A DNA stretch of 64,000 nt from a virus (IMGVR_UViG_3300040856_002293:6805-70804), one strand, 5' to 3'; positions 1,780 to 49,138 are shown, counted from the stretch's first letter. Made by a program: numbers and translations. The notes: generated by a model from the sequence alone, not told the origin.

Positions 1780-2049
1780 ATGAATAACAATACTAATAAA
1801 CCCCAATACAAAGTACATAATATATCTACACCCCCAGATATAAATGAACAATGGTATATGGTAAGAGAAACAACCTCAGATAATCCTACAGATAATAACC
1901 TAAAACCAACCAATAACCTAAAGGCTATTACCATAATGGTTACACATAACTTTCGTAAGGAACTTAAAAAAGAACTATCCATAAGAGATATAACTATAAG
2001 AGACTACATAATAAACCTAATAAAAGAAGACTTAGGTATCACAGAATAA
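1780..2049 (+). CDS. small DNA-binding protein (ribbon-helix-helix-like C-terminus)
   Basis: 'ITIMVTHNFRKELKKELSIRDITIRDYIINLIKEDL' strand-helix-helix pattern. Confidence 0.55.
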   Translation: MNNNTNKPQYKVHNISTPPDINEQWYMVRETTSDNPTDNNLKPTNNLKAITIMVTHNFRKELKKELSIRDITIRDYIINLIKEDLGITE

Positions 2050-2442
2050 ATATTAAAGTGTCTATCAATCAATTAAGTTAATCAAACAACACTACACAGC
2101 ACCAGCTCCTCCCCCCTAACAGGAGGGGATGGAGCATTGTTCATAACATATAAAGATAAGCCTAAACCCCACTATATACAAAGGTATATACCATAGGGAA
2201 AGGAAGCAAATGTAGTTATGTGTAACTATGTGGAGATATGTGGAAAAGAGTGTCTATCAAGATTGACATATGATCGTTGGGGAGGGTAGGTGTATTTGGG
2301 ACTTTTTCATTCACAGACTTATTTTTTCTGGAGGAAAATTAATCCCTTCCTCCCTTCCCCCAAATAATATTTGGCAAGGGGTATAGGTTAAGACAAATTA
2401 AATTTGGTTAGGTAAATTATTTAAAAAAAAGTACAGACAGAG

Positions 2443-2474
2443 TTTGGATAATTGGGGAGGATGGTGTATATTTG
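2443..2474 (+). promoter_or_regulatory. Bacteroidota-type promoter upstream of a non-coding structured region
   Basis: TTTG at 2443 and TATATTTG at 2467-2474. Confidence 0.55.
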
Positions 2475-2785
2475 TGTTGTCAATGGGAGGGGATGATAAC
2501 CTTCCCGAACGAAAAGCGAAAACCGATTAAAGAGCCGTTTACCCTGGAGGGGGGTCTGTTTACTTCAGTCTCCAACAAAGAAGTTTCCTATTCTCCCCCT
2601 CCGTTCTATTACTCGTTGGGGGGGGAGTGTTATAATCTGATACCTTAAGGATTGTGGCAACTTAGCTCTCCTCCCTATTTTAGTTGGCACATCTTGTACG
2701 CCAGTACAGTCTGCATATTTTAAGTTTTATAGTTAACAATGATTGGTAAAGGGAGGGCAATAGCTCTCCCTTTCTTTTTAGAGGA

Positions 2786-2832
2786 CTTATAAGGATGTTA
2801 CTCGCCCGGTAATATGATTTCGTGTTTGACCC
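2786..2832. repeat. 47-bp bipartite element, copy 1
   Basis: CTTATAAGGAT-gttactcgCCCGGtaatatg-ATTTCGTGTTTGACCC. Confidence 0.95.
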
Positions 2833-2899
2833 CCTCTCCCTAATTGGGGTAGGTAGGATTGGCAGGATTGATAGGTGGGTTACAAACTTATATAGAGGA

Positions 2900-2946
2900 C
2901 TTATAAGGATGTTACTCACCCGGCAATATGATTTCGTGTTTGACCC
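2900..2946. repeat. 47-bp bipartite element, copy 2
   Basis: CTTATAAGGAT-gttactcaCCCGGcaatatg-ATTTCGTGTTTGACCC. Confidence 0.95.
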
Positions 2947-3106
2947 CCTGGGGGTGGGTGGGGTTAGATCCCCACCGGTGTTTCCCTTTTCGAGAGTATT
3001 TTTTCTTTGATCTATGAGTCTTTGCTGTCATCTTTTTTGATGTATGATGATGTGCTTCTCCCATAGATATGTTGTCAAATTTGTACTTTCTTTTGCTTGT
3101 TTTCAT
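2912..3106 (-). CDS. small basic protein
   Basis: K/H/R-rich ORF (KKKYSRKGKH); minus-strand promoter TTTG..TAAATTTG at about 3129-3162; C-terminus runs into element copy 2. Confidence 0.6.
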   Translation of the reverse strand: MKTSKRKYKFDNISMGEAHHHTSKKMTAKTHRSKKKYSRKGKHRWGSNPTHPQGVKHEIILPGE

Positions 3107-3200
3107 ATCTCTTGTTTTAAATAACTATGCAAATTTAATACTTATTTTTTATTTACCAAATTTTTATAGATATTTTTTTTAAAAAAAAGTTGGGAAGATG

Positions 3201-3232
3201 TTTGAATAATATTTCAGATCGTTGTATACTTG
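3201..3232 (+). promoter_or_regulatory. early promoter (Bacteroidota type, one mismatch)
   Basis: TTTG 3201 and TATACTTG 3225-3232. Confidence 0.6.
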
Positions 3233-3261
3233 CACCATCGTTAACAACAAAATCAAAAATT

Positions 3262-3549
3262 ATGACAAAGACAGAGATGTGTTCATTGGTAGATTTAAAC
3301 AAACTTATCTACAATTTTACCGAGATTATTCCTTCCCTAAAGGAGCAGTACCTTCACTTCCATTATGATATATCTACGGATACGATATCTCTTTTGGAGA
3401 TTAATGGTGGAAAGCCTATGGAGGGGGATGATATGTCTATAAGGTTTTCCGAGGAGGGTGATTTATATGAGATTACTGTAACTGGGGATAAGTCCTTTTG
3501 TAATACGGTAGGTGATGTATTGAATCATATAGAGAATTGGTTTGCATAA
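3262..3549 (+). CDS. early hypothetical protein
   Basis: in-frame ATG at 3262 after promoter and A-rich leader (the track's 3190 start overlaps the promoter). Confidence 0.75.
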   Translation: MTKTEMCSLVDLNKLIYNFTEIIPSLKEQYLHFHYDISTDTISLLEINGGKPMEGDDMSIRFSEEGDLYEITVTGDKSFCNTVGDVLNHIENWFA

Positions 3550-3617
3550 TAACTTGTTTTATATCTGGAATTGGTGATGAACCTCTCCCCAGCTTTTGGT
3601 GGAGGGGTTCTTTTTTA

Positions 3618-3664
3618 CTTATAAGGATATAGTATACCCGGAAATGTGATTTCGTGTTTGCCCC
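3618..3664. repeat. 47-bp bipartite element, copy 3
   Basis: CTTATAAGGAT-atagtataCCCGGaaatgtg-ATTTCGTGTTTG; follows a terminator-like hairpin and T-tract. Confidence 0.95.
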
Positions 3665-3790
3665 CCCCCCCTGGGGGTGGGGTGGGGTTAAATCCCCACC
3701 GGTGTCCCTGTTGACAGATCTTCCCCTACTATCAAAGTTATTATACTATATATAAGGTGTAACTTTTTCACTAAAAAAGTTATGGTAGGA

Positions 3791-3822
3791 TTTGGATAAT
3801 TAGGAAAGTCGTTTTATATTTG
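3791..3822 (+). promoter_or_regulatory. early promoter
   Basis: TTTG 3791 and TATATTTG 3815-3822. Confidence 0.75.
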
Positions 3823-3852
3823 CATCATTGTTAAACTTAAAAACTTAAGATT

Positions 3853-4236
3853 ATGGGATTTTTTTCTTGGAAAACACAAGACACAGACAAAAGCATTGCA
3901 AATGCTTATTCAGTAGAAAATACCTTTACAGTATGTATGGTAGATGACAAAGGTAACATTTGGAAGGAAAGGAATTATGAGGGGTATGGTGAGTTTGGAG
4001 GGAAGGATTACTATGAGTTACTTGCTGAAATGAATGGGGTAACTATGGATAAGTCTTTGAAGAATTACACAGAGTTGATGAGAAGTAAGGGTATTAATAT
4101 GGCTTTCAAAGATAATAGTAGTGGGGAGTATTCAAAAGATATTAAGTATCCTAATTTAGTTGAGAATCCACAGAATTGGGAATATGAAGAATCATCTCCA
4201 AAGATTTGTGAATGTCAAGGTTACTTTTACGAGTAG
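3853..4236 (+). CDS. early hypothetical protein (MGFFSW type)
   Basis: ORF after promoter and leader; YEGYGEFGGKDYY motif. Confidence 0.85.
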   Translation: MGFFSWKTQDTDKSIANAYSVENTFTVCMVDDKGNIWKERNYEGYGEFGGKDYYELLAEMNGVTMDKSLKNYTELMRSKGINMAFKDNSSGEYSKDIKYPNLVENPQNWEYEESSPKICECQGYFYE

Positions 4237-4262
4237 AATAGTTTCGGACAGAGTTGTTAGAG

Positions 4263-4294
4263 CCTCTCCCCAGAAATCTGGGGAGGGGGTTTTT
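4263..4294 (+). terminator. rho-independent terminator (repeated at 5184 and 10399)
   Basis: CCTCTCCCCAGA-AA-TCTGGGGAGGGGG followed by a T-tract. Confidence 0.8.
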
Positions 4295-4295
4295 A

Positions 4296-4342
4296 CTTAT
4301 AAGGATATAGTATACCCGGAAATGTGATTTCGTGTTTGACCC
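4296..4342. repeat. 47-bp bipartite element, copy 4
   Basis: identical to copy 5. Confidence 0.95.
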
Positions 4343-4457
4343 CCTTCCTCCACCTAATCCCCCCCAAGATCTCCCAGATCAAACAGATCGTAGGATCTTC
4401 TCAAGGTTTTAACACAATTTGTTTATAAAAAAACTTTAAAAAAATATTAAAATATAT

Positions 4458-4489
4458 TTTGAATTGTGATAGATATTATATTATCTTTG
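4458..4489 (+). promoter_or_regulatory. early promoter
   Basis: TTTG 4458 and TATCTTTG 4482-4489. Confidence 0.75.
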
Positions 4490-4517
4490 ACCTATTGTTA
4501 ATAAAAAACTTAAAATT

Positions 4518-4781
4518 ATGAAAACTTTTGTAGTATTAATCCCGGCCGAAGGTTCATTAGTAGAGCCAAGAAATGTTTGTGAGTTCCTTGAAGGAACTAA
4601 ATATGACATAGGAGGTTCAGTTCAAGCCACCTCTACTGACGTACTGAAAGAGGTTCTGTCTGAATTCGATTTAAATGATTCGGATGGCATAGGAGTTCAT
4701 TCCCTTTCAACTTTTATGGATATGCTTAATAATGATGAATTCGATTTGAATGATTATTATTTTTCGTATGTATATGCTTAA
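4518..4781 (+). CDS. early hypothetical protein
   Basis: ORF after promoter. Confidence 0.8.
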   Translation: MKTFVVLIPAEGSLVEPRNVCEFLEGTKYDIGGSVQATSTDVLKEVLSEFDLNDSDGIGVHSLSTFMDMLNNDEFDLNDYYFSYVYA

Positions 4782-4790
4782 TAAAAACTT

Positions 4791-4814
4791 GGGGAGAGGT
4801 TAACACTTCTCCCC
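4791..4814 (+). repeat. intergenic hairpin type B (also 7040-7063, 7331-7354, 12113-12136)
   Basis: GGGGAGAGG(C/T)TAA....TTCTCCCC between co-transcribed genes, followed by an AAAAACTTAAAA leader. Confidence 0.8.
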
Positions 4815-4848
4815 TCATATTAAATTGTTAAACTTAAAAACTTAAAAA

Positions 4849-5151
4849 ATGGGATATTACACCAAATTTGAATTAGAAGTAGCCAATGGAGATGACCACA
4901 AGACTGATTACGAGCAGGAAATAAGAGAACTTTCTGATTACGAGTATTTGTTCGATGACGTAGTCAAATGGTATAACTTTGAAGAAGATATGAGAGCTTA
5001 CAGTAAGAACCACCCCAATACTGTCTTTGAATTAAGTGGGGAAGGAGAAGAAAGTGGTGACTTATGGAAAGCATATTTCCAAAATGGGAAAATGCAAATG
5101 TGTAGAGCCAAAGTTATTTACGATGAATTTGATGAGTCAAAATTATGCTAA
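4849..5151 (+). CDS. early hypothetical protein (MGYYT...FELSGEGEE type)
   Basis: ORF with motif seen commonly in phage early genes. Confidence 0.85.
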   Translation: MGYYTKFELEVANGDDHKTDYEQEIRELSDYEYLFDDVVKWYNFEEDMRAYSKNHPNTVFELSGEGEESGDLWKAYFQNGKMQMCRAKVIYDEFDESKLC

Positions 5152-5183
5152 TAAGTATAGTATTATTTTGGTAGAAGTTGATT

Positions 5184-5215
5184 CCTCTCCCCAGAAATCT
5201 GGGGAGGGGTTTTTT
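5184..5215 (+). terminator. rho-independent terminator
   Basis: same hairpin as at 4263, plus T-tract. Confidence 0.8.
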
Positions 5216-5216
5216 A

Positions 5217-5263
5217 CTTATAAGGATATAGTATACCCGGAAATGTGATTTCGTGTTTGACCC
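5217..5263. repeat. 47-bp bipartite element, copy 5
   Basis: followed by CCCACC..GGTGGG and GGGAC..GTCCC hairpins and CAGATC repeats. Confidence 0.95.
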
Positions 5264-5375
5264 ACCACCTCCGGTGGGGACCTGGGTCCCTGTACCATCC
5301 CCCCCCAACAGATCAGATCAGGTATTAGGGTGTATTTTCCGGGAATAACTTATTTTAAAAAAATATCAAAATAAA

Positions 5376-5408
5376 TTTGGAAATTTGATACATATTATAT
5401 TATCTTTG
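5376..5408 (+). promoter_or_regulatory. early promoter
   Basis: TTTG 5376 and TATCTTTG 5401-5408. Confidence 0.75.
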
Positions 5409-5438
5409 ACCCATTGTTAAACTTAAAAACTTTTTATT

Positions 5439-6095
5439 ATGCCAAATTGGTGCAGTAACACAGTCAAAATCGGTTGCACTAAAACCGAAACCCTTGAGGA
5501 GATTAAAAACTTAATATCTTCTCGCAAGGAAGACCAAGGAATATTCCAAGCAACAGTTGGATTGTTTCCAAAGGAATACTTATACGACAAGAGTATACCA
5601 TTTCAAAGCGATACTATCATTGATGAAAAGTATTTTGATTGGTATAACCACAACGTAAATGAGTATGGAACAAAGTGGGATGTTAATGAACAAGAACTTT
5701 CTATTACAGAAGGTCACGATTGCATTTATTTGTATTTTGATTCTGCTTGGAGTCCTCCAGTAGAATGGGCAAGTAAACTATCTTTTAAATTCGCTTGTCA
5801 AGTTGAAATAGAATTCTCCGAGCCGGGATGTGACTTTGGAGGAAAAAATTTCTACGATTGTGGGGATTTGGTGATGGAGGAAAATTATTCATACCTTGTG
5901 TGGTTGTTAAAGAGTGATAGAGATAAGTTTTGGAATGAGATAGAATATATTACTGAAGACTACGACAAGGAGCAATTTGAGGAGTATAGAAGTGGGGTAT
6001 TAGATGATATATCAGATTCTATTTCTACGGAAGATGCTAACTTTGCAGTCGGTGTTTTCAATGAAATCTACAATAATATGTTTGTAGAAGAGTAA
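5439..6095 (+). CDS. DUF1281/YubB (Api92-like) ferredoxin-fold protein
   Basis: MPNWCSN start; 'WY..NV.EYGTKWD', 'FDSAWSPP' and 'FSEPGCDFGG' motifs. Confidence 0.8.
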   Translation: MPNWCSNTVKIGCTKTETLEEIKNLISSRKEDQGIFQATVGLFPKEYLYDKSIPFQSDTIIDEKYFDWYNHNVNEYGTKWDVNEQELSITEGHDCIYLYFDSAWSPPVEWASKLSFKFACQVEIEFSEPGCDFGGKNFYDCGDLVMEENYSYLVWLLKSDRDKFWNEIEYITEDYDKEQFEEYRSGVLDDISDSISTEDANFAVGVFNEIYNNMFVEE

Positions 6096-6172
6096 ATTAA
6101 TATGGGGATATGTTTGTAAATTTCATACATATCCCTTATCTTTGATCCAATGTTAATTTAAACCATAAAATA

Positions 6173-6550
6173 ATGAAAAAATTATTAATAATAGCATTAG
6201 CAATATTTGGTCTTCAGACCGGGTATTCGCAAACAACATTAAAGAACCACAGAAATGGAGTTCTTTTAAAAGAACAGAGTAAATCTGTAAAAAAAGCAAA
6301 TTTGTTAACTTTTAAAAACTTTAAAGTTATGGAAACATTTAGAGCTGAAGTATTAGGAGTCGGAGAAAACGTATGGTCTTCTAATTCTATGGAATTTAAA
6401 ACCGAACAGGAAGCCAAAGATTGGCTGATCGGATTGAGCAGAAGATGGTTTGGTTGTGATGCCGGGAGAATTGTTAAAAACTCAACGGAAAGAAACCAAG
6501 AAGTAAATTGGGATACCGATACGTTTACTTTTAATTTCCGAAATCGGTAA
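6173..6550 (+). CDS. hypothetical protein with signal peptide; possible internal start at 6329
   Basis: MKKLLIIALAIFG signal-like N-terminus; promoter TATCTTTG at 6137. Confidence 0.7.
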   Translation: MKKLLIIALAIFGLQTGYSQTTLKNHRNGVLLKEQSKSVKKANLLTFKNFKVMETFRAEVLGVGENVWSSNSMEFKTEQEAKDWLIGLSRRWFGCDAGRIVKNSTERNQEVNWDTDTFTFNFRNR

Positions 6551-6555
6551 AAAAA

Positions 6556-6620
6556 TTGGGGAAAGTAAAAAAAAACTTTCCCCAAAATTTGGAATTGTCA
6601 GAGATATTATATTATATTTG
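6556..6620 (+). promoter_or_regulatory. stem-loop plus early promoter cassette, type A (also 7771-7832, 11087-11148, 11765-11826)
   Basis: GGGGAAAGT-An-CTTTCCCC hairpin abutting TTTGGAA.TGTCA.AGAT...TAT(A/C)TTTG. Confidence 0.85.
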
Positions 6621-6656
6621 TGTCATAATTATTTGATTAACTAAAAAACAAAAAAA

Positions 6657-6866
6657 ATGCAAGAGAGAGAAGAAATCATCCCAACAATGGAAACTGCAAT
6701 AGATAAATTGTTTTCTGGCGTAGTTGTACTATGTTTTGGATTTATGTTATTCATTATCGATTGGGTGGATATCCCGGTCCATATGAAATTAACATTATCT
6801 TTATTCCCAACAGTTGGGATAATCACTATTTTTTACTCATTACTAAAAACAGTTTTAAGAAGATGA
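6657..6866 (+). CDS. small two-helix membrane protein
   Basis: ORF after promoter; two hydrophobic segments. Confidence 0.75.
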   Translation: MQEREEIIPTMETAIDKLFSGVVVLCFGFMLFIIDWVDIPVHMKLTLSLFPTVGIITIFYSLLKTVLRR

Positions 6867-7033
6867 ACACTTTAGAAATGGCTTCAGATATGGCTGAAGA
6901 GAAAGTAAAAGAAGAATTTCCAAATCCATATACCCAGGGTCCAAATGGGGATTGGAGATTCACAGAAGAGGCTCAAGACCTCTTCAATTTTTGGTATGAG
7001 ATTTATTTGGATGAATTAACTTGTGCCGACTAA
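6863..7033 (+). CDS. early hypothetical protein
   Basis: ATG at 6863 overlaps the previous stop (ATGA); MNTLEMASDMAEE... Confidence 0.7.
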   Translation: MNTLEMASDMAEEKVKEEFPNPYTQGPNGDWRFTEEAQDLFNFWYEIYLDELTCAD

Positions 7034-7090
7034 AAATCCGGGGAGAGGCTAATGCTTCTCCCCAAATTTAAAAACTTAAAAACAAATAAT

Positions 7091-7324
7091 ATGAAAAATA
7101 AAATAAAAGAAAGTAAATTTTTGGAATGGTATTTCCAAAACCGGGATGACTTGATGATTTTTGCAGAAAGTATCCTATTTGAATTAAAGAAGTATGGCAA
7201 ATCTTCTTTAACTACAAAAAAATTATTTGATAAATGTGGATATATACCCTCCCACATTTGTGAGGATACCTCTGTGATTACGGAGTACGATCCCTCCGAG
7301 GTATACTTTTTAGAAAGGGTATAA
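7091..7324 (+). CDS. early hypothetical protein
   Basis: in-frame ATG 7091 after type-B hairpin and leader. Confidence 0.7.
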   Translation: MKNKIKESKFLEWYFQNRDDLMIFAESILFELKKYGKSSLTTKKLFDKCGYIPSHICEDTSVITEYDPSEVYFLERV

Positions 7325-7384
7325 AAAGCCGGGGAGAGGCTAATACTTCTCCCCAATATTAATAACTTAAAAAAACTTAAAATT

Positions 7385-7750
7385 ATGAACTTATTTAAAA
7401 GCACAATAAAGGAATTGACCTTTGAAAAAGACCCGGACAATAGGTGGTATATTGTACTGCCAGAATGGGAGGGAGATAGAGAGGATTTAGAAATGGTATC
7501 TGGAGCAGATACATTATTAGACCATTTATCAGAGGGTAAAGATTTGGTAACTTTAACAGTTGCAAAAATACCTTTGGAGATACCCAGACCAAGGGTAGTA
7601 TTAACTTACGACCATGAATATATGGGTGGAGCAGTCTATAGGACTCATCATATAGGTGGTGGCTCTTTGGATAATATGTCTGTATGGTTATGTAAGGTAA
7701 CCAAATTTGTATATGGTGGAGTAATGCCTCGAACACTATCCATACAATAA
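7385..7750 (+). CDS. DUF6717-like protein
   Basis: 'RWYIVLPEWEG...LEMVSGADTLLD...WLC.VT.FVYG' motif. Confidence 0.7.
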   Translation: MNLFKSTIKELTFEKDPDNRWYIVLPEWEGDREDLEMVSGADTLLDHLSEGKDLVTLTVAKIPLEIPRPRVVLTYDHEYMGGAVYRTHHIGGGSLDNMSVWLCKVTKFVYGGVMPRTLSIQ

Positions 7751-7864
7751 CCCGGTCTGATCAAAAATTAGGGGAAAGTAAAAAAAACTTTCCCCAATAT
7801 TTGGAAATGTCATAGATATTTTATTATCTTTGACCTATTGTTAAACATTTAAAAACTTAAAAAA

Positions 7865-8701
7865 ATGAGACAATTATCAATGCAAGAAATGATCACTTCT
7901 GCACCCGCAATAAATGCAGAAGCAAAACAAGAGACTTTAACCAAGAGGTTTAAGTTTGTTTCAACAAAAGACGTTATAGAAGACGTTACAAAATTAGGGT
8001 GGACTCCTGTCTCTGCAAAGCAGAGAAAGAACAAAGACGTAAACCCACTATATGCACAACATATGGTGGAGTTTAGAATAGACCATCCAATTGCGATATC
8101 CCACAAGGATGATTTAATCTATCCCCAGATTAGTCTTGTTAATGCCCATAATGGCAAATCTTCTTTTAGATTCTATGCCGGGTTATTTAGACTTGTTTGT
8201 TCTAATGGACTTGTTGTCCCGGTCCAAGTAGGTGGAGAATCTTTAGGGGATGGATTCAGAATTCGTCACGACTCCTATGATATCAAAGAGGTTAAATCTA
8301 CGATAGAAAAGTTAGTAAAAGGTATTCAAAAGAGTATGAAACCTATTTATGCTTTAAACGATAGAACCCTAACTGATAAAGAAAAGAGAAATCTTGCAAA
8401 AAGAGGACTCTCTATCAGAAATGAAATCAAGAGTAGTGATTTAAGGGAATTCTTAAATTCTATCCCAGATGAGACAGTTGATTCCATCCTAACCCCAAAA
8501 AGAGGTATGGACACAGGAAACAACGCTTGGAGAGTATTTAATACTGTTCAGGAGAGTTTAGTGGGTGGAGATTTCCAAAACTTTTTATTCGATAAAGAAT
8601 CAAATTTAAAGTTTAGGTCTGCAAGACCCTTGAGTGATATGTTTAAAACGCAGAAATTTAATATCAATTTATTAAAAGAAGCACAGTTATTGTTAAATTA
8701 G
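7865..8701 (+). CDS. DUF932/DUF945-family protein
   Basis: 'H.VEFR...LVNAHNG.SSF...AGLFRLVCSNGLVV...RH' and 'W.VFNTVQE' motifs. Confidence 0.85.
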   Translation: MRQLSMQEMITSAPAINAEAKQETLTKRFKFVSTKDVIEDVTKLGWTPVSAKQRKNKDVNPLYAQHMVEFRIDHPIAISHKDDLIYPQISLVNAHNGKSSFRFYAGLFRLVCSNGLVVPVQVGGESLGDGFRIRHDSYDIKEVKSTIEKLVKGIQKSMKPIYALNDRTLTDKEKRNLAKRGLSIRNEIKSSDLREFLNSIPDETVDSILTPKRGMDTGNNAWRVFNTVQESLVGGDFQNFLFDKESNLKFRSARPLSDMFKTQKFNINLLKEAQLLLN

Positions 8702-8752
8702 GTTATGTTGCCTCTCCCCAGATTTCCGGGGGGAGGCTTAAAAACAAATAAT

Positions 8753-8947
8753 ATGAAAGATAAAATAAAAGAAATAGTAGATAAGTATGGGGTATCTGAA
8801 CAGGATGCTAAATCTATCCTAAAGGAAAATTACGAGTTAGCATTAGACGTAGAGGATGGTATGTCAGATCACGCTTTAGAGATACTTTTAACTTATGAAT
8901 ATATGATATCAATTTTAGAAAACGAAAAAGATAATAACAATGGATGA
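8753..8947 (+). CDS. early hypothetical protein
   Basis: in-frame ATG 8753 after hairpin and leader. Confidence 0.7.
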   Translation: MKDKIKEIVDKYGVSEQDAKSILKENYELALDVEDGMSDHALEILLTYEYMISILENEKDNNNG

Positions 8948-9137
8948 TAGTAAAACTTTGAACGAACACATTCAGATGACTATGGAACAGTACGGTTTAG
9001 ATAAATTGACTGCTATTAATTTATTAATAGATAGATTCAATTTTGTATTAGACTTTTGTGCTGATTCTTACGATGACCCTAATTTAAAAAAGGAATTGGA
9101 AGATTCATTAAAAAAGTTAGAAGAACCCGGTAAATAG
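8940..9137 (+). CDS. early hypothetical protein
   Basis: ORF overlapping the end of the previous gene. Confidence 0.7.
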   Translation: MDDSKTLNEHIQMTMEQYGLDKLTAINLLIDRFNFVLDFCADSYDDPNLKKELEDSLKKLEEPGK

Positions 9138-9210
9138 TTAATTACTAAATTTGGAAATGTCAGAGATATTATATTATCTTTGACTCATTGTTAATAAAAA
9201 ACTTAAAGTT

Positions 9211-9462
9211 ATGGAAACTGAAAACGTAATCACATTAAAGCATCGTCTTGGGTTTATCCAATATACCCACGATGAGTTGTCAAAGGAATTGGATGACCTT
9301 GCATTTTTAAGAGATTCTTTTTTAGTTCTCTTAAATGAGGATTTAGCAAGAAGATCTGATCTACCTTTTGATAAAGAGACAGTCCTAAAATATACAAGAG
9401 AAATGTATAGAGAAGGCAATTGGAATCAAGAGTTAATAGATAAATTCTTTGACTTAAAATAG
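9211..9462 (+). CDS. early hypothetical protein
   Basis: ORF after promoter (TATCTTTG 9175-9182). Confidence 0.75.
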   Translation: METENVITLKHRLGFIQYTHDELSKELDDLAFLRDSFLVLLNEDLARRSDLPFDKETVLKYTREMYREGNWNQELIDKFFDLK

Positions 9463-9515
9463 AAAAATAGGGGTGGGTTTACCCATCCCTTATTTAAAAA
9501 CTAAAAAACAAAATA

Positions 9516-10370
9516 ATGATGAATGTATTATCCCTTTTTGATGGCATATCTGTAGGACAATATGCTTTAAACAAAACTAACCATACAATAGAAAATTATT
9601 ATGCATCTGAAATAGATTCATATGCACAATCAATAACCCGGTTTAACTTTCCCAATACAAAATTTTTGGGAGACGTAACCAAAGTATCTATGAAAGATAC
9701 ACCAATAGATTTATTAATAGGTGGCTCTCCTTGTCAAGGATTCAGTTTTGTTGGTAAACAATTAAACTTTGAGGATGATAGAAGTAAGTTATTCTTTGAG
9801 TTTGTTAGACTCTTGGAAGAGACCAACCCTAAATACTTTTTCCTTGAAAACGTAGTAATGAATAAAGATTCAATACAAGTCATATCTAATGCTTTAGGAG
9901 TTAATCCTATTAAACTCAATAGTGCTGATTTTTCAGCACAAAATAGACCAAGACTATATTGGACTAACATACCGTACAAAAACCCGGCAGAAGCCAATAC
10001 AGAGGTAATTAAAGATATATTGGATGAGGATGCAACGTTCTCAAATAAGTATCCTAATTTTATTGACCTACATTGGGGAGGAGAACCAAGAAAAAATAAA
10101 CTTAAATATTCTGATCAAAAAGCAAGGACATTAACTGCTACTATGTGGAAAGGACAGGTATGTACATTTGTCAGAAATAGACAAGAAGAGGTACATAAAT
10201 TTACACCAACAGAATGTGAAAGGTTACAAGGACTCCCAACCAACTATACTCAAAGAGGTATTGTAGATAATAAAGTAGTAGACATATCTAATACTCAACG
10301 ATATAAGACTTTAGGTAATAGTTGGAATGCTCCAACAGTAGAACAGTTCTTTAAGAACATAAAGATATAA
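9516..10370 (+). CDS. DNA (cytosine-5)-methyltransferase
   Basis: motif I SLFDGI, IV GGSPCQGFS, VI FFLENV, VIII QNRPR, IX TPTECERLQG, X LGNSW. Confidence 0.95.
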   Translation: MMNVLSLFDGISVGQYALNKTNHTIENYYASEIDSYAQSITRFNFPNTKFLGDVTKVSMKDTPIDLLIGGSPCQGFSFVGKQLNFEDDRSKLFFEFVRLLEETNPKYFFLENVVMNKDSIQVISNALGVNPIKLNSADFSAQNRPRLYWTNIPYKNPAEANTEVIKDILDEDATFSNKYPNFIDLHWGGEPRKNKLKYSDQKARTLTATMWKGQVCTFVRNRQEEVHKFTPTECERLQGLPTNYTQRGIVDNKVVDISNTQRYKTLGNSWNAPTVEQFFKNIKI

Positions 10371-10398
10371 TTTGCATTCTCATTGTTTTTGTTAATCA

Positions 10399-10430
10399 CC
10401 TCTCCCCAGATTTCTGGGGAGGGGTTTTTT
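10399..10430 (+). terminator. rho-independent terminator (loop inverted relative to 4263/5184)
   Basis: CCTCTCCCCAGATTTCTGGGGAGGGG plus T-tract. Confidence 0.8.
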
Positions 10431-10431
10431 A

Positions 10432-10478
10432 CTTATAAGGATATACATACAACATACCACTCATTTCGTGTTTGACCC
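10432..10478. repeat. 47-bp bipartite element, copy 6 (divergent spacer lacking CCCGG)
   Basis: CTTATAAGGAT-atacatacaacataccactc-ATTTCGTGTTTGACCC; spacer still 20 nt. Confidence 0.95.
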
Positions 10479-10656
10479 ACCACCACCGGAGGTGGGACCA
10501 GGGTCCCTGTGGTATGACTCCAACAGATCAGATCAGATCAGGTATTAGGGTGTATTTTCCGGGAATAAATTACTTTAAAAAAACATTAAAATATATTTGG
10601 AATTGTCAGAGATATTATATTATCTTTGACCCATTGTTAAACTTAAAAACAAAAAA

Positions 10657-11079
10657 ATGAGAAACAAATTTGAACAATCAGATAAAGCAATCGAATTTAT
10701 TAAAGGTGGTAATGCCACCTTTACAATCTGTTCAGCAAAGAACAGATATACCTATAAAGTTATTAAGACTCATTTCGATGAGTCAAAATACTTTGTTATG
10801 CTCTTAACCGGGAGTGATAACAATAATGATTTCTCTTATGTTGGGATGCTATTTCCTAACAGAGATAAAATCACTCTAACTAAGAAAAGTGTAATGACAG
10901 ATCAGTCATTGCCTGTAGTTGCATTCAACTACACATATAAAAGACTCCTAAATGGGTTTATACCTAAAGGAGTGTCTATATACCACGAGGGTCGTTGTGG
11001 CTCTTGTGGTAGAAAGTTAACAGTACCTGAATCTATTGAAAGTGGGTTCGGACCACATTGTTTATCGAAGTTAGGATAA
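10657..11079 (+). CDS. DUF6011-like zinc-finger protein
   Basis: C-terminal 'HEGRCGSCGRKLTVPESIESGFGPHC'; promoter TATCTTTG at 10621. Confidence 0.8.
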   Translation: MRNKFEQSDKAIEFIKGGNATFTICSAKNRYTYKVIKTHFDESKYFVMLLTGSDNNNDFSYVGMLFPNRDKITLTKKSVMTDQSLPVVAFNYTYKRLLNGFIPKGVSIYHEGRCGSCGRKLTVPESIESGFGPHCLSKLG

Positions 11080-11175
11080 AAAAATTGGGGAAAGTAAAAA
11101 AAACTTTCCCCGAAATTTGGAATTGTCAGAGATAATATATTATCTTTGTGTCATCATTCACTAAAAAACAAAAAA

Positions 11176-11757
11176 ATGAGAGAAAAAGAATTTAAGAAAA
11201 TTACAGTAGAAGAGCTCAAGGAGTTCTTAAAAACTGTAAAGCATTACAGAAGAGTTGAGTTGCTAACAACAACTCCACTAAAACCAAAAATGGTCGTTAA
11301 GGACCGGAAAACAAAAGAGCCTAATCCGTTATTAAACGGATATGTAAAAACTCTCTTAAATGTAGCCTCTTTAGGCACAACCAAAGAGGGTACAACGGCT
11401 TACAGAGTCCGTTCTGAAAACAACGGACACGGGGCAGAAGAAAGTGCTTTCAAAGGCACATATGTAACGTACATTTCCCCGGTTTTGGCGAAGCATAAAA
11501 CCAAAGAACAGTATTATTTTTCCTATGAGGTAAAACTCAATGACGATGATGGAAAAGTAGAAAATGTAAACGTAAAGGAGAAGACATATCTTCTCCCAGA
11601 TTTCACCAAATTTGCCGGGAAAATCGGTGACGTTTGGAACAAAGTCTCTAAAAATCCAAGAGGAGTTGATATGCGAAGAGTTAAATTAGAGAACATTAAT
11701 AGAATATCTATTGATAATCACAGATTTCAGATTATTGATTCTGTGAATGCTATCTAA
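11176..11757 (+). CDS. early hypothetical protein
   Basis: in-frame ATG 11176 after type-A promoter cassette. Confidence 0.8.
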   Translation: MREKEFKKITVEELKEFLKTVKHYRRVELLTTTPLKPKMVVKDRKTKEPNPLLNGYVKTLLNVASLGTTKEGTTAYRVRSENNGHGAEESAFKGTYVTYISPVLAKHKTKEQYYFSYEVKLNDDDGKVENVNVKEKTYLLPDFTKFAGKIGDVWNKVSKNPRGVDMRRVKLENINRISIDNHRFQIIDSVNAI

Positions 11758-11860
11758 AAAAATTGGGGAAAGTAAAAAAAACTTTCCCCTAAATTTGGAA
11801 TTGTCAGAGATATTATATTATCTTTGTGTCATCATTGATTAATTAACTAAAACAAAAAAA

Positions 11861-12106
11861 ATGAGTGTAATAGCGAAAGATTGGGTGTGGTTCGAACACC
11901 CAGAGACAAACGAGTATATCGAATTCGAGGTTGAATTTGAGTATGATTTCGGACAATATGCATCTTATGATTCGCCTTCAACGGCTGATCAAGTCTACAT
12001 TGTGAAAGTACATTGTGACAATATCCCAGAATGGATAACAGAGGAGATGATATATGAGAAAACAACAGATATTGCAGTTGACTATGTCAACTCAATGTAC
12101 GACTAA
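11861..12106 (+). CDS. early acidic hypothetical protein
   Basis: ORF after type-A promoter cassette. Confidence 0.8.
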   Translation: MSVIAKDWVWFEHPETNEYIEFEVEFEYDFGQYASYDSPSTADQVYIVKVHCDNIPEWITEEMIYEKTTDIAVDYVNSMYD

Positions 12107-12166
12107 AAAGCCGGGGAGAGGCTAATGCTTCTCCCCAAATTTAAAAACTTAAAAACTTAAAAAAAA

Positions 12167-12595
12167 ATGAAAAAAGTAAAAACTTATATTATCGACCAAG
12201 TGGTCAGAGGAAGAAACAATGATAGGGAAATAAATTTCAGATTCCCTATAATAGTAAAGTCAAATAACATTGGTGGAAACGGAGAACCAATGTATTACCA
12301 CCTAACCGGGTGGCAATGTGATCAAATAGATTATAAAGTACAACAAGTAGCCAATAAGATTAAAGAATTAATTGGCGAAGATATGTATGTTCAGTCTGAT
12401 CTCCTAATCGCTCAAGACCCAATCTGGGAGATTGAGCCAGACAGATTAGAACAAGTATTAGAGGAGTATGGTAAAGGAGGTAAGTTTAATGAATTCTACT
12501 GTCTTACCCTATGGGATGGAGGTAGTTCTGGAGGATGGGTGATCCCCAGAAATAAAATTATTGACATTATAAAAGAGTCAATAATAGAAATATAA
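12167..12595 (+). CDS. early hypothetical protein
   Basis: ORF after type-B hairpin and leader. Confidence 0.8.
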   Translation: MKKVKTYIIDQVVRGRNNDREINFRFPIIVKSNNIGGNGEPMYYHLTGWQCDQIDYKVQQVANKIKELIGEDMYVQSDLLIAQDPIWEIEPDRLEQVLEEYGKGGKFNEFYCLTLWDGGSSGGWVIPRNKIIDIIKESIIEI

Positions 12596-12622
12596 AAAAA
12601 GGGACTATATGTCCCTTTTTTT
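12595..12622. terminator. bidirectional-type terminator
   Basis: AAAAAAGGGAC-tatat-GTCCCTTTTTTT. Confidence 0.8.
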
Positions 12623-12626
12623 ATTC

Positions 12627-12673
12627 CTTATAAGGATACTATATACCCGGCAATATGGTTTCGTGTTTGACCC
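12627..12673. repeat. 47-bp bipartite element, copy 7
   Basis: CTTATAAGGAT-actatataCCCGGcaatatg-GTTTCGTGTTTGACCC plus the same hairpins as copy 5. Confidence 0.95.
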
Positions 12674-12859
12674 ACCACCTCCGGTGGGGACCTGGGTCCC
12701 ACCCACAGCAGATCAAACAGATCGTTTTATTATCCCAGAATAATAAACAATTTGTTTATAAAAAAAACTTTAAAAAAATATTAAAATATCTTTGGAAATT
12801 TGATACATAATATATTATCTTTGTGTCATCATTATTTGATTAACTAAAAACAATAAAAT

Positions 12860-13594
12860 ATGCAAGCTCAAAAAGTAGTTTTTCTTTCTGATGACAGAAA
12901 AGTCCTAAACGTTGTACGTTTAGGCGATACGACAAATTCAAAAATCGCTTCGCCTAAAGAGGTGATTTTGCAAACATATCATTTCGATATGTCACAAATC
13001 AAATTTGTTGCCAATGGTGGCAAAGGCACTAACTTAAAAACCGGGTTTCTTAGTCCTCAATTTACTTCTAATAATTGTATGTCTTGTCCAATGAGGTTTA
13101 AAGGTTGCTATACTTTTCATCCTGATCAAAGTAAAGGTAATTTGTCTATGATCCGTTCAATCGTCCGAGTTAACCCAAATTTAGAATTTAGTACATACAA
13201 TAGTGAGATTGAAAGTAAACTCATTGAGTTTATTAACCATAAGAAATTTACAAAGAAGTATATAAGGTTCGGCACATATGGTTGCCCTACAAATATGCCT
13301 ATTCAAGCGGTAGAACTTTTGGCTACAAAAGTAGGCAAGTGGACCGGGTATAGCCACGAGTGGCACAACCCGGCCAAATCTGAATATTTTAAATATTTTA
13401 TGGCTTCGAGCCATAGCGACAAAAGTATGTTTAATTCAAGTTTAGCAAATGCCTACGGTTTCCGTACTTTTGAAACCGATAGCACTAACGGTATCTATTG
13501 CCCTTCATATAGGGGAGTCACCTGTGCCAATTGTGGACTATGCTCCGGGACTGTCGGCAAAGGTAAAACCAACATAGTAATTAACAAGCACTAA
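12860..13594 (+). CDS. GP88-like Cys-cluster (radical-SAM-like) protein
   Basis: 'CMSCP....GCY', 'IRFGTYG', 'WTGYSH', 'FMAS', C-terminal 'CP...TCANCGLC'; promoter TATCTTTG at 12816. Confidence 0.65.
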   Translation: MQAQKVVFLSDDRKVLNVVRLGDTTNSKIASPKEVILQTYHFDMSQIKFVANGGKGTNLKTGFLSPQFTSNNCMSCPMRFKGCYTFHPDQSKGNLSMIRSIVRVNPNLEFSTYNSEIESKLIEFINHKKFTKKYIRFGTYGCPTNMPIQAVELLATKVGKWTGYSHEWHNPAKSEYFKYFMASSHSDKSMFNSSLANAYGFRTFETDSTNGIYCPSYRGVTCANCGLCSGTVGKGKTNIVINKH

Positions 13595-13808
13595 AATAGT
13601 ATTGGGGGTCGGATCAACCGATCCCCGATTATTATTTTGTTAGGGGGGGGGGGTTTCTTGGCGATAGGGCAAAGCCACCGGAGAAAATCACCCACACCTG
13701 TTTTCATATCGAGGTCAATTTTTTTACCCATAGAAGAGTGTCTGTTAACAGTATCAAAAAGTTTGGGAGAGGGGAGTACACTTATGAATTCATTTCCCAA
13801 ATCCAGAC

Positions 13809-13816
13809 TATTTATA
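13809..13816 (+). promoter_or_regulatory. putative late-promoter motif TATTTATA (also 14443, 19755, 21810, 26020, 27020, 36524, 38823, 49112, 60272; minus strand 32282)
   Basis: 8-mer recurring shortly upstream of starts of structural and leader-bearing genes. Confidence 0.7.
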
Positions 13817-13876
13817 GAAAACACAACGCACTAAAAAATTCCGGAGAAAAAATTTTTTTACCAAGAAAGTAGTATT

Positions 13877-14440
13877 ATGCCAGCCCCACGAAAGAACATT
13901 GACCCATTATTAACTAAAACAAGAGCTGCTAAACCTATCGTAGATGCTATTTTAAATCTAAATCAGATAGAGTTTTATTATTCAGGACCAACCAAGCCTT
14001 CCACTTTTGTAAAAGGACAGAGAAAGCCTGTTAAAAGGGGTAGAAGGGTAAAGGGTAAACCTGTTGCCATAGGGATATCAAAAAGGGATAGACTTTTAAT
14101 TAGAATACATGTTGAACCACCCTCAGTATCGTTAAGAGGTTTTGCAGACCATGGATGGAGAACCTTTATGTTAAGTCGTATGAGTAGTGTAAAGGTATTA
14201 AAGGACAAAAATTTCTCTTTATCTATACCAAGATATAATGGAGGAGGTCCTGATGAAGCCTTTAAAAGAACTTTACTATTTATAACACCAGAGTCGGTTA
14301 AGGAGAATTCTAAAACAGCATTTGAGATGAGAAGGGAAGAAATTCTTCGCAAGAAGCAAGAGAAAGAATTTAAGAAAATTGCAAAGCAAAGAAAAGAGAA
14401 GGCTCGAAAAGATTTGCGGGAGAAGAACAGAAAACTTTAG
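13877..14440 (+). CDS. WYL-domain-like protein
   Basis: 'IEFYY...GRR...PVAIG...LIR...GWRTFMLSRM' resembles a WYL (SH3-like) fold; basic C-terminal helix. Confidence 0.6.
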   Translation: MPAPRKNIDPLLTKTRAAKPIVDAILNLNQIEFYYSGPTKPSTFVKGQRKPVKRGRRVKGKPVAIGISKRDRLLIRIHVEPPSVSLRGFADHGWRTFMLSRMSSVKVLKDKNFSLSIPRYNGGGPDEAFKRTLLFITPESVKENSKTAFEMRREEILRKKQEKEFKKIAKQRKEKARKDLREKNRKL

Positions 14441-24033: not shown

Positions 24034-24654
24034 ATGAACGTATTAGAATTATTTGCAGGTTCTCGTAGCATTGGAAAAGTTGCGGAGAAGTTAGGACACA
24101 ATGTATTCTCAGTAGATTGGGAAAACTATGATGGAATTGACTTAGTAAAAGATATAAGTCAATTAACAAAAGATGATATACCATTTGTACCTAATATGAT
24201 ATGGGCATCACCTGATTGTACAACTTATAGTATTGCTGCTTGTTCTACACATAGAGAAAATACTGTGAATCCAAAAACAGAGTACGCTAAACAATGTGAT
24301 TCTACTAATATTCATTTTATAAATCTTATAAAAGAATATCTAAAGATAAATCCCAATCTTGTTTACTTTATAGAGAATCCAAGAGGAATGATGAGAAAAA
24401 TGCCTTGGATGCAAGAATTCAATAGGCATACTGTTTGGTACTGTAAGTATGGTGATATAAGAGCAAAGCCAACAGATATTTGGACAAACAGTACAACTTG
24501 GATACCGAGACCTATTTGTAAGAATGGTAATAAAGATTGCCATCATCAACCTGCCCCAAGAGGTAGTAGAACAGGAACTCAAGGATTAAGTAAATCCTAC
24601 GATAAGTCTAAAATACCACAACAGTTATGCGAAGAAATAGTAAAAAGTTTATAG
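24034..24654 (+). CDS. short DNA (cytosine-5)-methyltransferase-like protein
   Basis: VLELFAGSRS (motif I), WASPDC (IV variant), FIENP (VI), KPTDIW. Confidence 0.8.
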   Translation: MNVLELFAGSRSIGKVAEKLGHNVFSVDWENYDGIDLVKDISQLTKDDIPFVPNMIWASPDCTTYSIAACSTHRENTVNPKTEYAKQCDSTNIHFINLIKEYLKINPNLVYFIENPRGMMRKMPWMQEFNRHTVWYCKYGDIRAKPTDIWTNSTTWIPRPICKNGNKDCHHQPAPRGSRTGTQGLSKSYDKSKIPQQLCEEIVKSL

Positions 24655-24655
24655 T

Positions 24656-41619: not shown

Positions 41620-41621
41620 AT

Positions 41622-42749
41622 ATGTATTATTCTATATATCCTACATACGATACAACCATTTACGAAAAGGATTTTCGTAGAAATTCTGGTATAGACCAAA
41701 TATTAGAGTTAATTAAATTTGTATCTAATTCTCCTGATAAAAATGGCTTTTACTATGATGGTATTTATAACTCAAGAATATTAATAAAGTTTGATATAAA
41801 CAATTTATCATCATTAGTTAATTCGGGAAGAGTATCTAAAACATCTAAGTATTATTTATCTTTAAAAGCAACGGAAGCATCTGATTTGCCTTTATTATAT
41901 GATATTGATGTTTATGCTGTTTCTCAATCTTGGGATAATGGTGTAGGTCATTATAATGATTATCCTGAAATAACTGAAGGAGCAAGTTGGGTTTATAGAA
42001 ATGGATACTATTTAGGAACAGGAACTCCTTGGATTTCCTCATCGTATTCTGCAGGAACTACGGGTTCGTATGCCACTACCCAAGGAGGAGGAACTTGGTA
42101 CACCGGTTCTAATTATTATGCTACTAAGAATTTTGACAATGTTGATATCCCTGATATAAGAATAGAAGTTACTAATATAGTACACCAATGGTTAAGTGGA
42201 AGTATAGAAAATAATGGATTTATAGTTAAAAGAACTGAAGCAGATGAATTAAGTTCTGATTACAAAGGAGAATTAAAGTTTTTTGGAAGAGATACCCATA
42301 CTATTTACGTTCCTAAATTAGAAGCAGTATGGGATGATAGTAATTTGTCAGGAACAGGAAGTTTAGATGAAGTTGGTGAGGATTTTGCTTTATTTGTTAG
42401 TAATATAAAGAAAAGTTATAGAACTAATTCCAAATATAGGTTTAGAGTAAAAGCAAGAGATAGATATCCTACACTAACATATTCTAACACAAATAATTAT
42501 TTAGATTTTAAAAGATTACCTACATCATCATTTTATGCTATCCAAGATAGCACTACTGATGACTTTATTATTCCATTTGACACAGGATCTACAAGACTTA
42601 GTGTTGATGCGAATGGTAATTATTTTAATGTTGATATGAATACATTTCTTCCTGAAAGATTTTACAAAATCGTATTTAAAATACAAAAAGATGGAGGGTT
42701 TACTGAGCATATAGTTGATGATGGATTTTATTTTAAAGTGGTTAGATAA
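41622..42749 (+). CDS. structural protein (DNRLRE-like domain)
   Basis: DTTIYE...SRILIKFD...W..G.G...W...N.GFI...PKL pattern. Confidence 0.7.
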   Translation: MYYSIYPTYDTTIYEKDFRRNSGIDQILELIKFVSNSPDKNGFYYDGIYNSRILIKFDINNLSSLVNSGRVSKTSKYYLSLKATEASDLPLLYDIDVYAVSQSWDNGVGHYNDYPEITEGASWVYRNGYYLGTGTPWISSSYSAGTTGSYATTQGGGTWYTGSNYYATKNFDNVDIPDIRIEVTNIVHQWLSGSIENNGFIVKRTEADELSSDYKGELKFFGRDTHTIYVPKLEAVWDDSNLSGTGSLDEVGEDFALFVSNIKKSYRTNSKYRFRVKARDRYPTLTYSNTNNYLDFKRLPTSSFYAIQDSTTDDFIIPFDTGSTRLSVDANGNYFNVDMNTFLPERFYKIVFKIQKDGGFTEHIVDDGFYFKVVR

Positions 42750-44821: not shown

Positions 44822-44847
44822 TATATATAATTATATTAAAGTAGTAT

Positions 44848-49086: not shown

Positions 49087-49138
49087 AACAAAATAAAATA
49101 AACAAAGTATATATTTATAATAAAAAACAACTTACATT

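Follow-up and report, generated by a model that had tools for sequence, protein, structure and literature searches.

A two-box element behind terminators in the early region of a low-GC myophage: a candidate promoter dependent on a phage factor

The stretch of DNA studied here (hereafter the window) comprises 64,000 nucleotides, bases 6805-70804 of a 70,804-base IMG/VR virus record (IMGVR_UViG_3300040856_002293), and contains seven copies of a 47-bp element in which two conserved boxes enclose a spacer of 20 nt. In a related phage the boxes were kept far better than the spacer, and the spacing was fixed within each phage, which, as judged from the two sequences, marks the element as a selected signal. 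Most copies start directly behind a terminator, and box 2 departs from the host promoter consensus at three critical positions. Tentatively, we favour the reading that the element is a promoter that would depend on a phage factor, and that it would form, together with the preceding terminator, a cassette similar to the promoter-early and promoter-middle stem-loops (PeSLs and PmSLs) of T4-type phages.

The record has an estimated completeness of 43% (CheckV) and a GC content of 31%, and its genes include baseplate, tail-fibre and GIY-YIG/SegE-like endonuclease genes. The baseplate wedge protein shares 50% identity with that of 'Microcystis phage Mel-JY01' and 39% with that of Flavobacterium phage immuto. 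Judged by its genes, the source is a low-GC myophage and a distant relative of phage immuto.

Copies of the element and conservation of its boxes

A pattern scan of the window, with up to 3 mismatches allowed, found seven matches to CTTATAAGGAT-N20-RTTTCGTGTTTGMCCC (also written CTTATAAGGAT-N20-RTTTCGTGTTTGACCC), all on the plus strand. Six of these were exact, and copy 3 had a single change (its box 2 ends in GCCCC). Not one of 100 shuffled sequences yielded a match to the full pattern, in line with an expectation of zero. The full 70,804-base record contained the same seven forward copies, none on the reverse strand and none with a reversed-pattern control. A profile built from 16 copies (these seven and nine of the relative described below) scored those copies at 40.7-52.2 bits, and hidden degenerate copies are lacking, because the next-best score in the window and its flanks was only 13.7 bits. 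This confirms an earlier reading of the window made without other data (hereafter the sequence-only reading), which had listed seven copies in one orientation and none elsewhere.

The copies are located at 2786..2832 (copy 1, 0 mismatches, 47.0 bits, with box 1 CTTATAAGGAT, a 20-nt spacer with CCCGG, and box 2 ATTTCGTGTTTGACCC), 2900..2946 (copy 2, 48.9 bits), 3618..3664 (copy 3), 4296..4342 (copy 4), 5217..5263 (copy 5, 52.2 bits), 10432..10478 (copy 6) and 12627..12673 (copy 7, with a box 2 that begins with G). All seven fall inside 10 kb, among open reading frames (ORFs) of 50-280 amino acids that are mostly without known function. The distance from copy to copy ranges from 114 nt, between copies 1 and 2, to 5200 nt. 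Copies 3, 4 and 5 are identical across the 47 bp except for one base.

Box 1, taken as an exact 11-mer, was confined to the elements in the record. It contains the 8-bp palindrome CTTATAAG that had been pointed out before, and all seven occurrences of this word in the record fall in elements. Element positions 11-15 read TATAG, TGTTA, TACTA or TATAC. The spacer was exactly 20 nt long in each of the seven copies, as had been claimed. Six of the spacers carry CCCGG at a constant offset; the exception is copy 6, which starts 62 nt past the stop of a C5-methyltransferase gene (9516-10370). A strain contig (L099) keeps this variant spacer with 2 changes.

The strongest evidence for a selected signal comes from G001, an 85.5-kb IMG/VR record that was reached via protein comparison. 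Its baseplate protein is 80% identical to that of the window, and the genes upstream of its early region are 89-100% identical. In its early region we found nine same-strand copies of CTTATAAGG(A/G)N-N19-TTTGCGTGTTTG. The search with the fixed-spacer pattern (up to 3 mismatches) had missed them, because the spacing is shifted by 1 nt: box 1 and CGTGTTTG are 24 nt apart in each of the seven copies of the window and 23 nt apart in each of the nine copies of G001. In the two phages together, CTTATAAGG, TT and CGTGTT were invariant in 16 of the 16 copies, box 2 read CGTGTTTG in 15, and every copy was co-oriented with the genes. Between the phages, identity was 0.97 for box 1 and 0.81 for box 2, against 0.26 for the spacer and 0.38-0.39 for the flanks, in a comparison that covers two phages and in which the copies within one genome are not independent. 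The sequence-only reading had proposed that its interpretation would fail if the boxes were no better conserved than the spacer in relatives, or if spacer length varied. In G001 the boxes outlast the spacer, and the spacing holds within each phage with a difference of 1 nt between the phages.

CCCGG occurs in none of the nine spacers of G001, and CCGG is absent from the whole 85.5 kb of that record. Because of this, the suggestion that the element might be methylation-sensitive does not hold as a general property. G001 also lacks a homologue of the window's three C5-methyltransferase genes. In the record of the window, 33 of the 42 CCSGG sites are located in the 10.8-kb early region (2786-13600, 15% of the length), where composition predicts 3.0 (binomial 1e-19). 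This enrichment of about 11-fold extends over all reading frames of many unrelated genes, and 39 of the 58 CCGG sites lie in the same region. Hence, the CCCGG of the spacers is part of a wider CCSGG pattern and not of the conserved element.

Several other short palindromes are rare in the record (the window plus 6.8 kb upstream). CTAG and CGCG are absent, against 203 and 44 expected, and counts are also low for GGCC (6), GCGC (7), CATG (25) and GATC (87 of 203). CCGG and CCWGG are not avoided, which suggests that the phage's own methyltransferases protect CCNGG-type sites only.

Beyond G001 and a few strains, the element was not found in the collections that were searched. In IMG/VR, the exact 15-mer of box 2 occurred at 79 loci, none of which had a box-1-like word upstream, and all were chance or coding matches; box 1-N21-TTTCGTG gave 6 loci with 3 distinct sequences, none of them related. 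A scan of a metagenome collection with gaps of 12-30 nt yielded 12 distinct loci. Contigs L096, L097/L098, L099 and L100 are near-identical strains (93.7-98.9% identity), and the remaining 7 loci were chance matches. Box conservation cannot be read from the strain contigs, because they were found through exact boxes. In 185,579 prokaryote genomes there were 4 chance loci (three in Photobacterium, one in Desulfobacterium) and no Bacteroidota genome with the element. It was likewise lacking in the cultured relatives Mel-JY01 and immuto, and in two more distant IMG/VR relatives, G004 (complete, 178 kb) and G005 (a 77-kb contig). Among 80 loci around homologues of the upstream phosphoesterase gene, only the G001 locus had the element. 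A k-mer search for analogous repeats in the distant relatives gave nothing comparable, and a protein-pattern search with gene 7865-8701 gave no close relative. Contig L221 was dismissed as a carrier, with a chance match at a profile score of only 9.1 bits. A literature text search with the box sequences returned, among the matches listed, unrelated primer matches only, none about phages.

Position of the element in the early region

In the early part of the window (3200-12850), small genes are arranged in an array, and each has an upstream promoter of the Bacteroidota type (TTTG-N19-21-TAnnTTTG) and an A-rich leader that lacks a Shine-Dalgarno sequence. From 13809 to 60272, the motif TATTTATA stands 20-36 nt ahead of 13 start codons, always on the gene strand. 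It is probably a late (or middle) promoter of this phage, with a form like that of the late promoters of T4-type phages, which have a single box. The phage has at least two promoter classes, with the host type at 3200-12850 and TATTTATA from 13809 onwards. Therefore, the elements belong to an early region that is driven by the host polymerase, in a phage whose temporal layout resembles that of T4.

Seven strong plus-strand terminators were found at 2000-14000, and an element follows within 1-12 nt after six of them. The terminators starting at 2748, 4263, 5184, 10398 and 13601 were found by a scan, and those at 3582 and 12601 were read by eye. A terminator-like hairpin with a T-run precedes copy 1 (2748..2778). 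Before copy 3 we recognized a hairpin cctctcccc..ggagggg with a T-tract (3582..3617), which the scan missed on account of its imperfect stem. Intrinsic terminators with a T-tract stand before copies 4 (4263..4295, 11 pairs), 5 (5184..5216, 11 pairs) and 6 (10398..10431, 12 pairs). Copy 7 is preceded by the hairpin gggactatatgtccc with T7 (12601..12626); it has A- and T-runs on both sides and was called on the minus strand by the scan. Copy 2 has no terminator before it. The seventh terminator (13601) closes the early region and is not followed by an element. Hence, the terminator T-tracts that the sequence-only reading saw ahead of copies 3-7 are present, and copy 1 has one as well. In G001, seven of the nine copies begin 0-3 nt past a terminator T-tract.

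The order of features behind the element also agrees with that earlier description for copies 3-7. A stretch of 50-68% GC (in the first 50 nt past the element, against 31% for the genome) is followed by one to three AGATC words, an A/T-rich tract and a host-type promoter. The AGATC words occur within 130 nt downstream of copies 2-7. The region behind copy 5 (5264..5330, plus strand) illustrates this variable GC-rich stretch, in which short hairpins are combined with AGATC repeats, and similar stretches follow copies 2-4, 6 and 7. In copies 3, 4, 5 and 7 the scan placed the host-type promoter 117-131 nt past box 2. These promoters, all on the plus strand, are TTTG-N20-TATATTTG of gene 3853 (3791..3822) and those of genes 4518 (4458..4489), 5439 (5376..5408) and 12860 (12791..12823). 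The promoter of gene 10657, downstream of copy 6 (10596..10628), was recognized by eye and belongs to the same sequence family.

In G001, short hairpins of another sequence follow box 2 in about four copies; then comes a ~31-bp repeat and then the host-type promoter, at 54, 117 and 149 nt from box 2 in the copies where the scan found one. Between each element and its host-type promoter (40400-49550 of G001; L203), this repeat is present in 2-4 tandem copies with the palindrome ACTTTnAAGT, at the place where the window carries its AGATC words. It looks like a lineage-specific operator-like array.

The short intergenic regions are without the element, and the host-type promoter takes the same slot there, 4 nt after a stem-loop. 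Four such regions (6556-6585, 7771-7795, 11087-11111 and 11765-11789) have a stem-loop of the sequence GGGGAAAGT(A)8CTTTCCCC. Its T-run is on the minus strand, and it would therefore terminate antisense rather than sense transcription.

Some further observations were made in the two phages. About 1.2 kb before the first early gene (2050-3261) has no convincing gene and contains copies 1 and 2, G/C-rich hairpins and T-rich tracts; possibly, it is a control region heading the early block. A poly-C run follows box 2 of copy 3 (C11, 3665-3676) and of copy 5 (C8, 5300-5307), and its length varies among strain contigs (for copy 5, C7 in L100 and C9 in L096). At the end of the window (63630-64000), tandem repeats of ~30 nt (ACACCAACAATTACTCCTAC...) lie within the last, open-ended ORF, which probably encodes a repetitive fibre-like protein. 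In G001, a 428-aa ORF at 24127-25413 (L202:4127-5413) has OrfB_IS605 and Cas12f1-like TNB domains and a matching helix-turn-helix, as in a TnpB-like protein.

A phage-factor promoter and its alternatives

In the Flavobacterium johnsoniae consensus given in PMC6847099, the -7 element has nearly invariant T-12, A-11, T-8, T-7, T-6 and G-5, and virtually no G at -10/-9. Box 2 has C, G and G at T-12, A-11 and the G-free -9, respectively. Moreover, no TTTG or TTG is present 19-21 nt upstream of box 2, where the phage's real host-type promoters have one. The element is therefore not a host-type promoter (-33 TTTG / -7 TAHHTTTG), because box 2 breaks three positions that are nearly fixed in promoters of this class, and the mismatch claimed by the sequence-only reading stands. 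Conversely, TTTGACCC occurs both in box 2 and in the -7 regions of the phage's host-type promoters (TATCTTTGACCC), and like these regions box 2 ends in TTTG followed by ACC, a likeness to the sigma-A (sigma-ABfr) promoters of Bacteroidota as presented in the same source (PMC6847099). With this shared part but altered sigma positions, box 2 resembles an RNA-polymerase site that the host sigma factor should not use.

In the promoter reading, each early transcription unit would be headed by the 47-bp unit, a DNA signal that is under selection and works in one direction. RNA polymerase would recognize it with the help of a phage-specified factor, which would be an alternative sigma factor or an activator that appropriates the host sigma. 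Box 2 would stand in for the -7 element in an altered form, and box 1 would take the place of the host -33 contact; for an activator, the contact with box 1 would lie at about -45. Transcription would restart right after each strong terminator, with transcripts beginning a few nt after box 2, and this second, phage-controlled start would be situated ~120-190 nt upstream of the host-type early promoter. A middle promoter class is to be expected in the T4-like programme of this phage, which has at least two promoter classes. The sequence-only reading had offered three options, and its interpretation is partly supported by our results. The best-supported option is the first, a two-box site read by a protein or a promoter for a phage factor, given boxes kept at 97% and 81%, a spacer at 26% and a spacing that is fixed within each phage. 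The promoter reading also draws support from the shared orientation of all copies with the genes, and from their position at the head of transcription units, in a slot that the host-type promoter takes in the short intergenic regions.

Several observations weigh against a promoter. Measured between their centres, the boxes are separated by 34-35 bp, compared to ~26 bp between the host -33 and -7 elements; this exceeds the host geometry, and makes it doubtful that one sigma factor alone would span both boxes. Every copy is followed by a good host-type promoter, so the genes need no second one. The high GC content (50-68%) of the first 50 nt past box 2 in the window is unusual for a start region. 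Pfam and PHROG scans of 102 ORFs of the phage and 74 ORFs of G001 gave no sigma factor, MotA/AsiA-like protein or other DNA-binding candidate, with each record covering less than half its genome and the two jointly accounting for some 100 kb of an estimated 165 kb. The metatranscriptome runs X22 and X23 gave short assembled contigs over coding parts and none over an element, and speak neither for nor against a promoter. Finally, only two phages carry the element, a narrow comparative base in which copies of one genome are not independent.

A more specific version of the promoter reading seems unlikely, and is put forward as a speculation from sequence. The element may represent the first middle-type promoter class in Bacteroidota myophages, in which a host -7 box with three sigma-A-critical positions replaced (TAHH to CGTG) would be ignored by the host polymerase until a phage factor reprogrammes recognition via box 1. 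The CCCGG in six of the seven spacers, in a CCSGG-rich early region and adjoining a phage C5-methyltransferase, might then add an input of methylation state that is absent from the relative.

The main alternative explanation, of which we are doubtful, is that the element is not a promoter but a docking site for a DNA-binding regulator of the phage or the host. Bound just after the terminator, an asymmetric protein with two domains, or two proteins acting as a pair, would either tune the downstream host-type promoter, by looping or bending that involves the repeats in between, or strengthen the limit of the transcription unit. The distance of 34-35 bp between the boxes, longer than a sigma footprint, would fit such a regulator, as would the palindrome CTTATAAG of box 1 with all seven of its occurrences in elements, and the separate host-type promoter downstream of every copy. 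Likewise, the differing short repeats between element and promoter (AGATC in the window, ~31 bp in G001) suggest a multi-protein control region. However, no fixed geometry links element and promoter: box 2 lies 117-131 nt from the promoter in the window, and 54, 117 or 149 nt from it in those G001 copies for which the scan gave one. The palindrome does not extend further: except in copy 7, the invariant GG has no mirrored CC, and a symmetric dimer is therefore not indicated. Furthermore, a roadblock upstream of a promoter cannot stop transcripts that start at that promoter, and the Pfam and PHROG scans of both sets of ORFs gave no candidate binding protein.

Recombination was another option of the sequence-only reading. 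The early-gene cassettes are shuffled between strains and relatives, and the element might primarily be a linker for their exchange, by homologous crossover at the boxes or through a site-specific enzyme. Copy 3 and its orthologue in G001, the copy at 41389, both follow orthologous genes; the two sequences are ~95% identical across the end of the gene, the terminator and box 1, but are no longer alike from the spacer onwards. Copy 4 is missing, together with gene 3853-4236, from both strain contig L096 and G001. In L096 another small ORF replaces them, with boundaries that fall in promoter or 5' untranslated region (5'UTR) sequence and not in elements. DNA runs X6 and X16, which contain related strains, gave 13 listed joints. 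In 7 of these, both ends are promoter/5'UTR positions no more than 61 nt ahead of a start codon (for example 3836>4504, 7858>10651 and 10650>11861, within window 3836-12810). Only one of the 13 touches an element, a low-depth joint of run X16 that starts inside box 1 of copy 5. Homology thus breaks at an element in the pair of copy 3 and 41389, but the L096 replacement and most mapped joints fall in promoter/5'UTR sequence. The main crossover point is the host-type promoter/5'UTR, and the element is an occasional one. Conserved non-coding motifs therefore appear to act as crossover points, and the element would occasionally do so because its boxes are conserved. As the primary role of the element, recombination is quite improbable. 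A pure crossover linker leaves the invariant boxes, the fixed spacing and the free spacer unexplained, and the ORF scans found no recombinase in the region.

Even less probable is the third option, in which the element would act as RNA, as a family of small RNAs or 5' leaders that combine a constant scaffold with a 20-nt segment that varies. The variable spacer between constant flanks has this general form, and short hairpins follow box 2 directly in five of the seven copies of the window and in about four of the nine of G001. Yet these hairpins are lacking in six of the 16 copies (copy 4 and five copies of G001). No Rfam family matched at its gathering score, and a search up to E = 1 added just 4 matches, all weak and unrelated. 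Extended by 67 nt downstream, the seven copies folded no better than shuffled sequences (z from -1.28 to +1.55), and the DNA up to the next gene has no terminator at which such an RNA would end. The late-motif likeness of TACTTATA, from which the RNA would start, is correct for copies 3-6 but is not conserved: copies 1, 2 and 7 read GACTTATA or TCCTTATA, and none of the nine G001 copies has it. A search of the record with the spacers of the window gave nothing at up to 4 mismatches and just 2 matches at 5, and within each phage the spacers resemble diverged copies of one ancestor rather than acquired sequences. In agreement with the sequence-only reading, a CRISPR array or a solitary repeat unit was ruled out, as box 1 and box 2 are unrelated sequences and the copies lie 114-5200 nt apart. 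The element is not coding either: a small conserved ORF through box 2 was rejected because start codons and frames differ among copies, with copies in G001 lacking a start.

The least probable explanation is a passive by-product of duplicated intergenic DNA without a function of its own, which we disfavour: whole intergenic cassettes are indeed repeated and homogenized here, as the near-identity of copies 3, 4 and 5 illustrates, but the boxes are invariant amid unalignable surroundings in copies 1, 2 and 7 and in all nine copies of G001, and between the phages the spacer retains an identity of only 0.26 against 0.97 for box 1.

Relation to known phage systems and meaning

The MotA/AsiA-dependent promoters of phage T4 and the gp28 promoters of SPO1 are middle promoters that are read through a phage factor. 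The element shares with them a host-like downstream part and a phage-specific upstream box at a fixed distance, and also its position in the early region, where such sites are often found upstream of genes that have early promoters as well. It differs in the sequences of its boxes and in a -7-like box that departs from the host consensus. Furthermore, the upstream box is farther away, at 23-24 nt from the -7-like box, compared to 11-13 nt between the Mot box and the -10-type box. A T4-type MotA-dependent middle promoter (a TGCTT Mot box at ~-30 with a -10 box) was rejected, as there is no TGCTT in the element. Pfam gave no match to the MotA or AsiA family among the 102 ORFs of the phage and the 74 of G001, from genomes that are covered for less than 50%.

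The stoperators of Cluster A mycobacteriophages are single sites of 13-14 bp that are bound by the prophage repressor of these temperate phages. Like the element, they occur as many asymmetric copies, co-oriented with transcription, in short intergenic spaces beside terminators or promoters. In contrast, the element has two boxes 20 nt apart and is located upstream of the promoter that it would have to block, and the phage shows neither a repressor candidate nor a sign of lysogeny.

The closest likeness is to the PeSL and PmSL cassettes described for T4-type myoviruses (PMC4122927; PMC2839356), in which a conserved promoter-type motif comes immediately after a terminator stem-loop, an arrangement that is repeated many times on one strand. 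In our data, six of the seven copies of the window and seven of the nine of G001 lie 0-12 nt after a hairpin with a T-run. These same-strand copies stand among small accessory genes, seven within 10 kb of the window and nine in the matching region of G001. The setting among small accessory early genes of a myovirus is also similar. Insertion, loss or replacement of single cassettes is frequent between relatives here, with 7 of the 13 listed joints and the L096 replacement bounded by the host-type promoter/5'UTR, and with one orthologous break and one weak joint at box 1; PeSLs have been described as crossover points (PMC4122927). The promoter-middle stem-loops reported from T4-type phages (PMC4122927), such as those of phage nt-1, and T4-type middle promoters would be analogues of the proposed second start. 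There are differences as well. The long cassettes of this phage have three parts, namely a terminator, a bipartite element of non-host type and a host-type promoter 117-131 nt further on. The element is unrelated to sigma-70, Mot-box and Bacteroidota consensus promoters, and its promoter role is putative. In addition, most mapped exchange points are at the host-type promoter/5'UTR instead of the element. In halovirus HF2, conserved intergenic repeat classes turned out to be promoters, as reported in PMC8707807. That likeness is confined to the conserved intergenic repeats, as HF2 is an archaeal virus with another promoter logic and without sequence likeness to the element.

The kind of arrangement is therefore known, a terminator-promoter-type cassette in the variable early region of a phage. 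New are the sequence of the element, the three-part layout and the lineage in which it occurs. Apart from the crAss group, the phages of Bacteroidota have to our knowledge hardly been studied for their transcription programmes, and we know of no middle-class promoter or sigma-reprogramming factor for these phages. As a sharply defined site of 47 bp, the element could serve as bait in a DNA pull-down and as a target for 5'-end mapping, which would make the factor that reads it findable. It also delimits the early transcription units of this lineage, which is of use in annotation. More generally, our results suggest that the terminator-promoter cassette architecture and the cassette shuffling of enterobacterial and vibrio T4-type phages extend to a distant, low-GC lineage of aquatic phages.

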